From Abditibacteriota bacterium (GTDB lineage Bacteria > Armatimonadota > UBA5829), in the NCBI GenBank assembly GCA_017552965.1, contig JAFZNQ010000101.1, positions 1,899-65,898 of the forward strand: a DNA stretch of 64,000 nt, read 5' to 3'. Under the pieces are notes generated by a model. The model was not told the DNA's origin, did no database searches, and saw only the letters and a program-made list of their open reading frames with translations. Numbering within the stretch: position 1 is the stretch's first letter; every line of letters starts with the position of its first letter. The position numbers and the translations under genes are program-made. Shown piece by piece: positions 34,885-38,977 of the stretch.

Positions 34885-37058
34885 ATATCCTCATCCTCCT
34901 CGTCATCATCTTCCAGTTTCTTTTCCTGGCGGGTCATGATCTCCCGCACCTTGTCCCCGGCTTCGAGGAACACTGTCGCTATGGTGGGATCAAAGTGTGA
35001 GCCGCTGCCCTCTTCGATGATGGACATGGCCTTCTCGAAGGAAAAGCCCTTTTTGTAGGGGCGCTCTGACACCAGAGCGTCAAACACGTCCGCCACAGCC
35101 ATGATACGGGCAGCCAGCGGTATTTCCTCTCCCTTGAGGCCTTCCGGATAGCCCATGCCGTTCCATTTTTCGTGATGATAGCGAGCCAGATTGGAGGCGT
35201 CTGCAAAATAGCCGCCCGAATCGGCGTCGCCTATGAGCCTGATGGCCTTTCGTATGATCCTGCCGCCGTATACCGCATGCCGCTTCATGTCGGCAAATTC
35301 TTCATCGGTCAGCTTGCCGGGCTTGTTGAGGATGCGGTCGGGCACCTTTATCTTGCCTACGTCATGGAGAGCGGCGGTGAGAGTGACGTTTTTCTTGAAT
35401 TCCTCGGTGATGACGTCCGTATACATATTCCGTCTCTGGAGCTCCTCCATGATGAGCTCGGCGTAGGCCGCGGTCTTCTGCACGTGGTCTCCGGTACACT
35501 GATCCCTCTGCTCCACCGTGTCGGCCAGCACCAGTATCAGGCCCGTCTGCAGCTTGTTGATCTTATCCTCCTGCTCCTTCATCTCACCGATGAACTTCAC
35601 CGTGTCCTTGGTGGTCCGGACTATGGCGTTGTAGAGATTCTCGATCTCGTCGCCGGTCCTGATGTCGAGAGCGGCTATAGTGCTGACGTTCTCGTAGCGG
35701 GAATCTTCGGTGGAATAGTCAAATTGGCTCGCGGTCTCCGCTATCCTGTTGACAGGCAGGATGATATTTTGCTCCGCCAGCCAGATAGCCAGCGTGAGCA
35801 GCACGATAAAGACGCCGAAGAAGAGGCTGATGACCCGGGCCAGGAACTGGTAGCCGGTGATGGCTATGTAGTTCATATTCACGTCCACGCACAGATAGCA
35901 CCGGCACCTGCCCTCCTTGTCCCGGAGAGGCTCATATACAGACAGCAGCCATCCGTAACGCTCGTTGGAAATAACGGGGTCGATGGGCTCCCCCGCCAGG
36001 AGCTTGGGCAGAACCTTCATGAAGGCTTCGTCAAAGGGTATCACAGTGCCCGGGTCCTCTCCCGGCGTGTCCGCCGTGTCGGGATCAAAGACCACGTGAC
36101 AGCCGTCGGGCTCTACCTTGTAGGCATAGACGTATTCGATGTTGTCGGCGCTGTCCATCAGGGTCTTGAGCTGACGCTCGCTCTCGCGATAGCCCTCCGC
36201 GTCTTCTCCGAACACCAGATATTCCTCTATCTTTTCCGCATCGATGTTTTTGGCGGCTATGTGGAGTATGCTGCGGGCGATGTATATCTGCTGATCCACC
36301 GCGCCGGTCCGGTACTGCTTGTAGCTGATACCGGATACAAAGCTGGCTATGATGATGCAGGCCCCGGAGACCAGCAGCACCACCTTGGTCCGGAGGGACA
36401 TCTTTTTGCGGTCGGAGATCGGCCGTCCTTCCTCATCCTCCAGGGGAGCGACCTTCGTCTTGCGGAAGCCGAAGAAGTAGAACTTGCTTTTGAAGGACTC
36501 CGGCAGCAGCTTCACTATGGCTACGGTGATGATCACCGATATGGTCTTGTCAAAAAAGTCCACCAGCAGGTCGGCCAGCAGCAGGGAATAAAAGGGAGGG
36601 ATGCCCCTGACCACCGAGAAATAATAGGCCAGACCGGAAGCGGAGCCTTCGCCGATCCAGAAGCCGTTGAGCACCCAGTTGAGCATGGTGCCGAAGATGC
36701 CGCCTATGAGGGCAAAGGTGACTATGATGATGGGCAGCGTGCTCAGGCGGTCAAAATAGCCCCTTTGGGCAAACCAGGCCGCGCTGATGGCTATCAGCAT
36801 GCTGATGAAGCTGTAGTAAGCGGTGTAATAGTTGCTGAGACCGTTGATAAGGTTGGTAAAGAGGCCCACTATAAACGCGGGGATATAGCCTCCGAGAGCG
36901 GCCGAAAGAGCGTTGCCTATGATATCGAGATACAAAGGCAAATCAAAATAATGGGCGATCTTGTAGCCGATAAAATTGATGCAAAGCCCCATGACGCACA
37001 AGAGCACGGTGTAAGAGAGCTTTTGGTGATTGTGTATATAAGTCTTGATGTCTTTCAT
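34881..37058 (-). CDS. Membrane sensor HD-GYP phosphodiesterase (N-terminal multi-TM domain, periplasmic sensor domain, HD-GYP catalytic domain)
   Basis: 725 aa. The C-terminal region has HD (ALHDVGK) and GYP (GMGYPEGL) motifs. About 7 N-terminal TM helices, an extracytoplasmic domain and another TM. Acidic tail. Confidence 0.8.
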   Translation of the reverse strand: MKDIKTYIHNHQKLSYTVLLCVMGLCINFIGYKIAHYFDLPLYLDIIGNALSAALGGYIPAFIVGLFTNLINGLSNYYTAYYSFISMLIAISAAWFAQRGYFDRLSTLPIIIVTFALIGGIFGTMLNWVLNGFWIGEGSASGLAYYFSVVRGIPPFYSLLLADLLVDFFDKTISVIITVAIVKLLPESFKSKFYFFGFRKTKVAPLEDEEGRPISDRKKMSLRTKVVLLVSGACIIIASFVSGISYKQYRTGAVDQQIYIARSILHIAAKNIDAEKIEEYLVFGEDAEGYRESERQLKTLMDSADNIEYVYAYKVEPDGCHVVFDPDTADTPGEDPGTVIPFDEAFMKVLPKLLAGEPIDPVISNERYGWLLSVYEPLRDKEGRCRCYLCVDVNMNYIAITGYQFLARVISLFFGVFIVLLTLAIWLAEQNIILPVNRIAETASQFDYSTEDSRYENVSTIAALDIRTGDEIENLYNAIVRTTKDTVKFIGEMKEQEDKINKLQTGLILVLADTVEQRDQCTGDHVQKTAAYAELIMEELQRRNMYTDVITEEFKKNVTLTAALHDVGKIKVPDRILNKPGKLTDEEFADMKRHAVYGGRIIRKAIRLIGDADSGGYFADASNLARYHHEKWNGMGYPEGLKGEEIPLAARIMAVADVFDALVSERPYKKGFSFEKAMSIIEEGSGSHFDPTIATVFLEAGDKVREIMTRQEKKLEDDDEEDEDI

Positions 37059-37445
37059 TTATACGCCTCTTTCCGCTCCCGCGCCTTTGGCGGGGGAGCT
37101 CAGCCGATGGATTGCAGCTATTAATATTATATCATACAGGCCCCCGGCAAATAAAGCCCCGCTCCCGCCAAGTAAAAAAATACTATAAACGCCGATTTTT
37201 ACAAAAACGGGCCGGACAGTCAGGCTGCAGACAGGTCCTCCCGGCGTGATCGCCCTCAGCCCCTCGCAGGCAAGAGACCTCCCGCAACTCGGGCGCCAGC
37301 CCCGCCGGGAATGCATACTGCTCCAAACAGGCGCCCTGGGCGGGCGCGGGAGGAAAACGATGCAACCCGATCAAAGCGTTCGCTCCCGCGGGATACGTAA
37401 ATAAGCGTTTGACAAAAAGCATGGGGGAAGTATGGGAGTCCTATG

Positions 37446-37486
37446 ACGAAAAGAAAAAGGGGAGGAGCGGAGGGTCTCGGCTCCGC
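37446..37486 (-). terminator. Intrinsic terminator of the candidate ncRNA
   Basis: Minus strand GCGGAGccgagaccCTCCGC followed by TCCTCCCCTTTTTCTTTT. Confidence 0.55.
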
Positions 37487-37815
37487 TGTATCTGCGAATC
37501 TCATCGGCTCGGGGGTGGGGTCCGGACCAACCGTGGCGTTCCCGACTCCGCTGCCCGCGCAGACCTGTCGCTCTCTGTAGCCGAACTCTGAGACCTCTTC
37601 AACAGACCGCGGGAGCCTTCCCGCTCACGAGAGAGTCCGGGGGGTTTGTGGCGCTTGGTAAGATATGCCGGCCGACGGGCCCTGAAAAGGGGCCTCATGC
37701 AGGCTCGGCCGTTTCCCGCGCGCTCAAACGCAGGATCTCTGACTTGCATGCTCCCTCGCGGTGACACTGTCAGGTCGCCGCAGCATGGGTCGGATCCGTC
37801 CCCTTCTGGGGGGAC
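37447..37815 (-). ncRNA. Candidate structured non-coding RNA (about 365 nt), class unassigned
   Basis: Bounded by a perfect sigma70 promoter (TTGACA-18-TATAAT) and an intrinsic terminator (GCGGAGccgagaccCTCCGC + U-tract). No credible ORF on either strand; the 116 aa minus ORF is Arg/Pro junk. GC-rich with many local hairpins (5' GUCCCC-CCAGAA-GGGGAC). I could not find tmRNA (no T-loop, no CCA, no ALAA tag), RNase P (no P4 strands), SRP or 6S signatures. Confidence 0.45.
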
Positions 37816-37821
37816 AGTATC

Positions 37822-37851
37822 ATTATATCCCGCCCCGGACGGGAATGTCAA
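37822..37851 (-). promoter_or_regulatory. Consensus sigma70 promoter driving the candidate ncRNA
   Basis: Minus strand cTTGACAttcccgtccggggcgggaTATAATgatactG: -35 at 37851-37846, -10 at 37827-37822, 18 nt spacer. Confidence 0.55.
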
Positions 37852-37852
37852 G

Positions 37853-37879
37853 AGCCCGCAAAAAGAGCCTCCCGGCTCT
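37853..37879 (-). terminator. Intrinsic terminator of the upstream conserved hypothetical gene
   Basis: Minus strand AGAGCCgggaGGCTCT + TTTTTGCGGG, immediately after the stop at 37880. Confidence 0.45.
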
Positions 37880-38977
37880 CTATTCCGGGGCTTCGCCCTT
37901 CTTCAGCTTCACGGCTATCTCCGCCGCGGCGGAGGAAGCCAGGAAAAACTCCGGAGTGTCCTCAAAGGAGTGGCCCATGGTGGAAAGGCGTATGCCCAGC
38001 CGGTCGGCCAAGTCCTTCCCCGCCCGGCAGGAGGACCTGATCAGGCGGTGCCGTCTGCCTATGCCCGACTCCTCCAGCTGCCGGTCCAGGCTCCGGCTCT
38101 TGTCCGGGTCGTCTATCGCGGGCAGGGGGACTATCACCGGCAGCAGGACAAAGTCCCGCAGCATGGTGGCCGTATGATGGCTCAGGCCCCGGTGTCTGGG
38201 TCTCTGGTCAGCAAAGCAGATGCGGGGGATGCACACGCAGCGCCCCTTCATGACCGCCGCGCCGTTCAGCACTCCGGCCATATCCAGACTGCCAAAGCCC
38301 AGACGGGTGCCGGTGCCCGCGTTGCCGGGTCCCGGCAGGACGGCCGCGTAGTCAGCCTTCAGAACGTCCCGGGCAAAGACCATGGCGGAGCAGGCGTTCA
38401 CCGCCTCGTAGTCTCCTCCGAAGGCCTGTCCGCAGGTGATGGTCCAGTCCAGGGCTCCTCCCTGCTTCAGGGTCTTTACCAGCCGGGAAAAGCCTATGGG
38501 CAGGCTGGAATAGTCGGTCATCACGTAGGCTATGCGGCATCCGGGGTCCAGCTCCTTCAGGGCGCAGCACAAAAGGGGCAGCTGGCTGTGGAGCTGTCCG
38601 CACACCACCGGCAAGCCCTCCAGGGAGTCGGCCCTTTCCAGCTGATAATGGTATGGGGAGCCCTGCTCCTCCACGCTCATCACAGTATGCTGGACCGGGG
38701 TATAGCGGCACTTCACAATGTGCCCCCGGTCGTCGCCGGCGGTCTCCTCCGGCCTTGTGAGATCGGCTATGACAAAATGGACCCCGCCGGTGCCCAGAGC
38801 CTTGCGGCAGGCTGTGGTGTTCACCAGCACCCGGTCCCCTTCCCTCAGCTCGCCGGCTATGGCGGCGTAGGCAAAGGCCCGGGCCCGGGACCCGTCGGTC
38901 ATGATGATCTCCGCCTCCGCGGACGCGCCGTCGCAGACGACGATCCGGGAGACCGTGGCTATTTCTCTTGTCAGCAC
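37880..38977 (-). CDS. Conserved hypothetical protein (possibly DUF3866 family)
   Basis: 365 aa from a GTG start (VLTREIATVSR...) preceded by AAGGAGAGG. The longer track ORF N-terminus is Gly/Arg junk overlapping the M20 gene. Family assignment is from memory only. Confidence 0.55.
   Translation of the reverse strand: MLTREIATVSRIVVCDGASAEAEIIMTDGSRARAFAYAAIAGELREGDRVLVNTTACRKALGTGGVHFVIADLTRPEETAGDDRGHIVKCRYTPVQHTVMSVEEQGSPYHYQLERADSLEGLPVVCGQLHSQLPLLCCALKELDPGCRIAYVMTDYSSLPIGFSRLVKTLKQGGALDWTITCGQAFGGDYEAVNACSAMVFARDVLKADYAAVLPGPGNAGTGTRLGFGSLDMAGVLNGAAVMKGRCVCIPRICFADQRPRHRGLSHHTATMLRDFVLLPVIVPLPAIDDPDKSRSLDRQLEESGIGRRHRLIRSSCRAGKDLADRLGIRLSTMGHSFEDTPEFFLASSAAAEIAVKLKKGEAPE

Follow-up and report, generated by a model that had tools for sequence, protein, structure and literature searches.

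What does the 822-nt gap between a DUF3866 gene and an HD-GYP phosphodiesterase gene hold in a 64-kb stretch of DNA from an uncultured rumen bacterium? The stretch (hereafter the window) is part of metagenomic scaffold_710 (ENA ERZ28653682, 120 kb), and its NCBI protein labels assign it to a rumen "Abditibacteriota bacterium" metagenome-assembled genome. A first-pass annotation had proposed, on the minus strand of this gap, a novel structured non-coding RNA (ncRNA) with a promoter and a terminator of its own. From searches of protein and RNA family databases and an alignment with a second copy of the locus, we favour, at somewhat below even probability, an independently transcribed, lineage-specific structured ncRNA that is predicted to be ~350-375 nt long. 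Positions given below are those of the window, and the candidate as well as both neighbouring genes lie on its minus strand.

The second copy is a composite of two contigs of a sister rumen Abditibacteriota species. One (L029, from a sister sample in ENA; DUF3866 87% identical) carries the DUF3866 terminator, the promoter of the candidate and the first ~100 nt of the candidate, where the contig ends. The other (L003, GCA_017616345.1; HD-GYP 71% identical) starts inside the candidate and carries the remaining ~290 nt together with the HD-GYP promoter. Since the two overlap by 12 nt (CCGATGCGCGCG) and both can be aligned with the window through the junction, they were treated as one copy (hereafter the relative); conclusions drawn for individual domains are independent of this join.

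Sigma-70 promoters were defined as TTGACA and TATAAT hexamers 16-18 nt apart. The TTGACA-18-TATAAT promoter annotated at 37851-37822 was recovered with a match of 12/12 (-35 TTGACA at 37851-37846, -10 TATAAT at 37827-37822) and would place the transcription start at ~37815. As annotated, it lies directly after the terminator of the upstream gene, beginning ~10 nt past the DUF3866 terminator hairpin. Its orthologue in L029 is TTGACT-18-TATAAT, an 11/12 match with equal spacing and a diverged spacer sequence. In block-shuffled copies of the 64-kb window ~0 matches of 12/12 are expected; the window itself holds four (37851; 16011, ahead of an rpoZ-like gene; 5731 and 5638, ahead of a tRNA cluster) and five further matches of 11/12, with all nine sites on the minus strand. 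The five sites that we inspected lie in front of the rpoZ-like gene, dnaJ and the tRNA cluster. Four 12/12 promoters in one window indicate that the organism uses this consensus routinely, so that the candidate promoter is credible, not exceptional; the use of the consensus before tRNA, rpoZ-like and dnaJ genes makes it clear that the organism reads it.

The annotation had seen no plausible open reading frame (ORF) in the stretch, and every measure of coding potential agreed. The source contig's own gene calls place zero genes in the 822-nt gap, and Pfam searches gave no match for the mechanical ORFs or for any six-frame fragment of the candidate. GC content by codon phase is flat in the candidate (0.65/0.63/0.64) and strongly phased in DUF3866 (0.65/0.49/0.82) and HD-GYP (0.55/0.35/0.76). 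Mechanical ORFs can be listed, such as a TTG-initiated ORF of 116 aa (37851-37501) and a frame of 82 aa starting from the conserved GGGAGCAUG; in the relative the 82-aa frame is shortened to 20 aa and a 20-aa frame to 3 aa, indels of 1-3 nt break the frames, and no ORF is common to the two copies. By these measures the candidate stretch is non-coding. We also rejected a decayed pseudogene, as the six-frame fragments had no Pfam match and no residual codon-phase signal was seen.

The Rfam search that the annotation had proposed matched no known family. With Rfam 15 at gathering scores, the whole 64-kb window gave 3 tRNAs only. At E<=10, positions 36900-38000 gave only chance-level matches to mir-4484, GP_knot1 and snoU31b (E 1.7-7.4), and L003 and L029 likewise gave only chance-level miRNA, snoRNA and pseudoknot matches. 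At this threshold there was no 6S, SRP, Ms1, raiA, OLE, ROOL, GOLLD or HEARO match at the candidate, and the covariance models of RNase P types A and B and of the cyclic di-GMP (c-di-GMP) riboswitches c-di-GMP-I and c-di-GMP-II had no match in the window or the relative. ARAGORN found 3 tRNAs and no tmRNA in the window. For a sponge of the CsrB/RsmZ type we looked for at least 7 GGA or ANGGA motifs in hairpin loops; the candidate has ~10 GGA triplets in 365 nt, compared with ~7 expected from its composition, and these lie mostly in stems. The annotation's failure to find tmRNA, RNase P, SRP or CsrB-type features was thus borne out. A loose resemblance to RNase P (ACAGAGAGC and CCACCC..GAGC) was rejected, as the strings are not kept in the relative and the model had no match. 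As judged with Rfam and ARAGORN, the candidate is outside every described RNA family tested.

The candidate core aligns over its full length with the composite copy, with 4 small indels. From its start to H6, the last hairpin, it measures 351 nt in the window and 346 nt in the relative, and a ~230-nt indel follows immediately downstream. Identity between the copies is 57% over 381 alignment columns; at four-fold degenerate sites it is 74% for DUF3866 and 65% for HD-GYP. Conservation is uneven: one block is identical at 24/24 positions, another (AGGUCUCAGAGUUCGG) at 16/16, identity is also complete in several blocks of 8-11 nt, and between the blocks it is ~44%. At the candidate's own mean identity of 0.57, identical runs as long as the 24-nt and 16-nt ones have P ~1.5e-4.

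The segments holding hairpins H1-H2, H3 and H4 (Table 1) were folded separately for each species, and H6 was placed by direct comparison of the two sequences. For H1-H2, H3 and H4 the same topologies were predicted in both species, and the stem changes preserve the hairpins. H1 has 6 bp in the window and 4 bp in the relative (GUCC-6 nt-GGAC, 2 nt lost per strand). The inner stem of H2 (GCGGYGAC/GUCACCGC) contains a single C.A mismatch in the window, repaired to U-A in the relative; the loop varies in sequence and length (8 nt vs 5 nt). H3 has a fold z of -2.26 in the window and -2.48 in the relative; its tip is identical across species, and its middle and basal stems differ in sequence yet stay paired in a new register. 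In H4, the invariant outer stem surrounds an inner hairpin that reads GCGGGA-AGGC-UCCCGC in the window and CAGCGGG-6 nt-CCUGCUG in the relative, and the invariant 16-nt block occupies 37596-37581. H5 is tentative: in the relative its outer stem is GCA/UGC, a compensatory change, and its inner stem is CCCUGCGC/GCGCGGGG, with a U-A pair replaced by C-G, and the folds of the 3' region around it are unlike between the species. Several stems contain G.U pairs when read from the minus strand.

RNAalifold folded the alignment at -79 to -81 kcal/mol, whereas column shuffles gave -62 to -64 +/- 5-6 (z -3.0 to -3.3), and 0 of 100 shuffles scored as low. Both sides changed in 11 of 74 predicted pairs, a count that comes from two sequences only. 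The minimum free energy (MFE) of the relative's copy has z -4.1 on the sense strand and -2.2 on the antisense strand. Two further regularities of sequence stand out. CGGGAA occurs in 3 copies against 0.13 expected (0 of 5000 shuffles reach three), at 37718-37713 in H3, 37623-37618 in H4 and 37544-37539 in H5, and the relative has it at all three orthologous sites, once as CGGAAA. The GAGACC loop of H6 has its complement, GGUCUC, in the invariant block of H4 (P ~0.009 for a complement of at least 6 nt); both partners are invariant, and their pairing is a possible pseudoknot or alternative pairing.

Table 1. Features of the DUF3866/HD-GYP gap and of the two genes beside it.
Feature	Positions	Strand	Basis
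DUF3866 gene, 365 aa, final gene of its operon	37880..38977	-	Pfam PF12982, E 9.4e-115; source-contig gene calls
DUF3866 intrinsic terminator, 8-bp stem AGAGAGCC/GGCUCUUU followed by a U-run	37860..37881	-	fold and sequence
Candidate promoter, sigma-70 consensus	37822..37851	-	12/12 match, 18-nt spacer
Candidate ncRNA core, ~350 nt (start to end of the invariant 3' hairpin block)	37464..37815	-	alignments
H1, predicted 5'-end hairpin, GUCCCC-6 nt-GGGGAC	37798..37815	-	fold, comparison
H2, predicted outer stem CAUGC/GCAUG and inner stem GCGGCGAC/GUCACCGC	37747..37787	-	fold, comparison
H3, predicted irregular ~85-nt hairpin with GGCCC/GGGCC tip	37644..37729	-	separate domain folds
H4, predicted invariant 8-bp stem CCGGACUC/GAGUUCGG around an inner hairpin	37581..37640	-	fold, alignment
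H5 (tentative), outer stem GCG/CGC, inner stem UCUGC/GCGGA	37536..37571	-	comparison
H6, predicted AGCGGAG-CCGAGACC-CUCCGCU, in a block 24/24 identical with the relative, loop included	37464..37487	-	alignment, fold
C-rich, G-poor tail including the U-run UUUUUCUUUU	37400..37463	-	C/G 2.3-3.2
~230-nt stretch, 62% GC, missing from the relative	37186..37412	-	alignment
HD-GYP gene's own promoter, -35 TTTATT, 18-nt spacer, extended -10 TGATATAAT	37126..37155	-	sequence and alignment
HD-GYP phosphodiesterase gene, 725 aa	34881..37058	-	Pfam HD_5, E 1.1e-34; motifs

The 3' end was less well described. The annotation had called the unit well delimited, with a strong intrinsic terminator at 37486-37446, and neither claim survived. 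Intrinsic terminators were defined by a stable GC-rich hairpin with a U-run within 0-2 nt. The H6 hairpin (37487-37466) is moderately stable (-11.6 kcal/mol, z -0.5 in a 61-nt context), and the U-run (37458-37448) begins 5-7 nt past its stem; at canonical terminators elsewhere in the window the U-run abuts the stem. The terminator scan made zero calls within 37000-37900, and the relative has no U-run after H6. As a terminator this hairpin is weak and atypical and is not conserved, which leaves the candidate's 3' end poorly delimited. The tail after H6 has the same C>G bias in the relative and may serve in weak termination or in the loading of Rho; it is also compatible with simple read-through.

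Past the tail, the ~230-nt stretch of the window had no ORF support, no Rfam match and no second copy in the window. At its end stand an imperfect hairpin (37242-37209) and then G and UUUUU at 37207-37203 (GUUUUUGU), which are found in the window only. On either side of the stretch are similar TTTTTGT..AAA..TTAT strings, perhaps a target-site duplication. Behind it lies the HD-GYP gene's own promoter, which has the form TTTATT-18-TGTTATAAT in the relative and an A/T-rich tract ahead of it, and which scores under the -35 threshold of our promoter scan.

Further copies were sought in several ways. A DUF3866 search of genome contigs returned one locus, at 69% identity and without the candidate RNA. 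Searches with the full HD-GYP and DUF3866 proteins yielded one closer species only, the members of their clusters being identical in sequence to the window, and a chimeric query that joined the DUF3866 C-terminus to the HD-GYP N-terminus, aimed at fragment contigs, added nothing new. Seven contexts of HD-GYP homologues (54-56% identity) held no candidate; their upstream gaps measure 115-195 nt except for one long gap (in L034; 55% identity). We rejected this gap as a further copy, as it is explained by a cobalamin riboswitch (L034 1703-1887, minus strand; 118.6 bits) upstream of cbiK that is unrelated to the candidate. Exact-pattern scans of viral contigs with the two invariant blocks, and of JGI metagenomes with a 20-mer of the 3' hairpin block, produced chance seed-length matches only. 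Neither blastn of the candidate against plasmids and phages nor an H3+H4 covariance model run over the window and 9 loci found a match or a paralogue, respectively. A literature search on rumen Abditibacteriota and on DUF3866 found nothing relevant.

The homologue comparison that the annotation had called for therefore supplied one sister copy, and with no other copy the covariation stays without proof. These searches place the candidate in only two uncultured species, closely related to each other, and it is fast-evolving, which falls short of the importance that the annotation had implied. Four independent short contigs of related samples all end either at the promoter or no more than ~100 nt into the candidate (L029, L032 and L031 at their 3' ends, L003 at its 5' end), L029 and L003 both at the 12-nt GC-repeat in which they overlap; the shared breaks suggest a coverage or assembly problem at GC-rich hairpins.

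A good deal of this weighs against a functional, independently transcribed ncRNA. The main caveat is that an identity of 0.57, below that of synonymous sites, could mean that most of the sequence is drifting; if neutral identity were 0.70-0.74, P for the 24-nt run would be only 0.02-0.07. The many complementary segments noted in the annotation do not set the window's copy, in a region of 64% GC, apart from shuffled sequence, its MFE being -147.6 against -148.8 +/- 5.7 (z +0.2 to +0.3), and the antisense strand of the window folds slightly better than the sense strand (z -1.4), so that by folding energy the window slightly favours the antisense and the relative the sense strand. When the MFE structure of one species is transferred to the other, more pairs are kept than expected from independent substitution, but with P of only 0.04 and 0.12. 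No canonical terminator lies between the candidate promoter and HD-GYP in either species, which makes read-through plausible. The candidate is missing after DUF3866 in relatives with 66-69% protein identity, where a different gene or a convergent overlapping gene is found instead, and no further copy came from BLAST, the covariance model or the collection scans. A new Rfam family calls for statistically supported covariation across diverse homologues; the 2 sequences from the only two carrier species are too few for a statistically valid covariation test. Of the proposed novel structured ncRNA, the non-coding character, the promoter, the lack of a known family and the retention of most hairpins in a second species held up; its structure is not established.

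The same observations can be read in two other ways, neither of which we consider likely. The stretch could belong to HD-GYP as its long, structured 5' leader and work as an attenuator or in the manner of a riboswitch, with the strong promoter as P1 and the extended -10 promoter as P2. H6 would then act as a terminator that is leaky and regulated, or contribute to a terminator/antiterminator switch; the invariant block with GGUCUC is able to pair with the GAGACC loop and the 5' strand of H6. This would account for the position of the candidate, which in both species immediately precedes HD-GYP on that gene's strand with no intervening gene, for the failure to call a canonical terminator between promoter and gene in either of them, for a U-run that is displaced in the window and missing in the relative, and for the 6-nt complementarity of the two best-conserved blocks. 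It sits badly with the HD-GYP gene's own conserved promoter behind an A/T-rich tract, with the non-conserved 230-nt insert, ending in a hairpin and U5, that separates the candidate from this promoter in the window, and with the lack of a match to c-di-GMP-I, c-di-GMP-II or any other riboswitch model at E<=10. The HD-GYP homologues of 54-56% identity, moreover, have no such leader. Alternatively, and with a similarly low probability in our judgement, the stretch is a spacer that is transcribed from a strong promoter but essentially non-functional, an element either young or in decay, whose hairpins are those expected of any sequence of 64% GC and whose similarity between the sister species reflects recent ancestry rather than selection. 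An identity no higher than that of synonymous sites (0.65-0.74), an MFE z of +0.2 for the window copy, the merely marginal structure-transfer tests and the absence from all more distant relatives examined are what such a spacer predicts, and the adjoining insert, equally GC-rich, is without any conservation. It leaves unexplained that the promoter hexamers and their spacing are kept although the spacer sequence has diverged, that conservation varies strongly along the sequence and includes unbroken identity over 24 and 16 nt, and that 350 nt have kept their length with few indels beside an indel of 230 nt. Nor does it explain the domain topologies predicted independently in both species, with an alifold z of about -3, the MFE z of -4.1 in the relative, or the CGGGAA repeats at orthologous sites.

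Far less probable than either is that the stretch serves as mRNA for a small protein, or that it belongs to a known family (tmRNA, RNase P, 6S, SRP, CsrB) but is too divergent for the models to recognise. The mechanical ORFs exist, the size class is like that of tmRNA, RNase P RNA and CsrB, and the RNase P S-domain strings are loosely alike locally, but the frames are not conserved, show flat phase GC and match nothing in Pfam, neither species has an Rfam match at E<=10, ARAGORN was negative, and the RNase P-like strings are lost in the relative. A housekeeping RNA would also be unlikely to be absent from a conserved locus, an argument that is weak alone, as the gene could lie elsewhere. Relatives whose flanking proteins are 54-69% identical lack the candidate, which therefore is not a housekeeping RNA, and the annotation's placing of it in the class of tmRNA, RNase P RNA or CsrB did not hold: it is found in two species only, its divergence is not below that of synonymous sites, and the window copy shows no better folding than shuffles.

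Because the HD-GYP gene has its own promoter and its distant homologues lack any such upstream element, the balance tips towards an independent RNA gene. The lineage-specific ncRNA would be transcribed from its own consensus sigma-70 promoter, starting at ~37815, independently of both neighbours, and would fold into the 5'-terminal H1, the internal domains H2, H3 and H4 and the strictly conserved 3' hairpin H6. H1 and H6 may protect the two ends of the RNA. Its 3' end may lie at or just past H6, through intrinsic termination of low efficiency or else Rho-dependent termination within the C-rich tail. The RNA might act in trans through the invariant single-stranded GGUCUC and GAGACC, the three CGGGAA sites, or both, on an mRNA or protein partner that perhaps belongs to the pathway of the adjacent HD-GYP gene. 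The bolder proposal that it founds a new family of ~350-nt structured regulatory RNAs in rumen Abditibacteriota, built of H1-H4 and H6 with a long-range GGUCUC/GAGACC pseudoknot and linked, both genetically and in function, to c-di-GMP turnover by HD-GYP, seems to us doubtful; the candidate fits a young lineage-specific ncRNA or leader rather than a major new RNA class.

The annotation had set the candidate between two loci related to c-di-GMP and stress, next to an HD-GYP gene. The HD-GYP side of this description fits. The protein has a membrane N-terminal region and a catalytic domain with HD at residue 565 and the motif HHEKWNGMGYP, and by Pfam match and motifs the product of the downstream gene is a true HD-GYP protein. 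The other side does not, since by Pfam and the source-contig gene calls the upstream operon, which ends at 37880, is NFACT(RqcH-like)-M28-M28-DUF3866. A 533-aa ORF of the mechanical list is an over-extended version of its DUF3866 gene, and the terminator of this gene folds at -12.3 kcal/mol (z -2.76). Two further features of the HD-GYP gene were noted. The N-terminal 150 aa (36609-37058) are weakly similar to ECF transporter S-component proteins (PF12822) and to cache-domain proteins, which hints at a ligand-sensing input domain. In the 5' untranslated region a hairpin (37076-37098, minus strand) stands directly before the ribosome-binding site GAAAGAGGC and is kept in L003 (~421-441) with a changed stem (CUCCCCCGCC..GGCGCGGGAG vs UCCCGCGC..GCGCGGGA), suggestive of a conserved element that acts on translation or stability.

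Other promoters of the window were inspected as well, all on the minus strand. The 12/12 promoter at 16011-15982 lies within the 3' end of an upstream 854-aa ORF and apparently drives the rpoZ-like gene (ATG 15932), and an 11/12 promoter at 15460-15432, past a canonical terminator after the rpoZ-like gene, apparently drives dnaJ. Upstream of the tRNA-Lys/Leu/Gly cluster (5491-5241) stand three tandem promoters ~95 nt apart (12/12 at 5731-5703, 12/12 at 5638-5609 and 11/12 at 5540-5512). Each of the two short segments between them contains sequence able to form hairpins, the first having a U-run in addition, and the arrangement may represent stacked promoters of the tRNAs or very small transcription units.

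If the favoured reading is right, this is the first ncRNA candidate known to us for the uncultured rumen Abditibacteriota, and an unusually long RNA (~350 nt), recognised by no family model and standing beside a c-di-GMP phosphodiesterase gene, would be a useful entry point. To our knowledge, lineage-restricted small RNAs (sRNAs) whose targets are unknown occur commonly in all phyla that have been examined; the candidate RNA is therefore no surprise, and two sequences neither open nor settle a long-standing question.

Among known systems, c-di-GMP riboswitches (GEMM-I, RF01051; c-di-GMP-II, RF01786) often precede genes with GGDEF, EAL or HD-GYP domains. The candidate resembles their leaders in directly preceding an HD-GYP gene whose strand it shares, in being GC-rich and predicted to be structured, and in ending with a potential terminator hairpin; unlike them, it is 3-4 times the length of the aptamers, matches no model, and has the HD-GYP promoter downstream of it. 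With tmRNA and RNase P RNA it shares a length of ~350-380 nt, high GC and a strong promoter, but it has no tRNA-like end, tag ORF or P4 strands and is missing from the syntenic locus of relatives. By size it is comparable to the protein-binding RNAs of the CsrB, Ms1 and 6S type, without an Rfam match to them: it has neither the many GGA hairpin loops of CsrB/RsmZ, its CGGGAA repeat differing from the CsrA consensus, nor the rod with a central bubble of 6S. The closest likeness is to orphan lineage-specific sRNA genes. Like these, the candidate has its own promoter after the terminator of a neighbour, no coding signal, a 5' hairpin, a conserved 3' hairpin with a U/C-rich tail, a narrow range and a repeated motif (CGGGAA), although it is longer (~350 nt) than typical base-pairing sRNAs and lacks a canonical Rho-independent terminator. 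It is best filed as an unnamed addition to this ordinary class of orphan bacterial ncRNA candidates.

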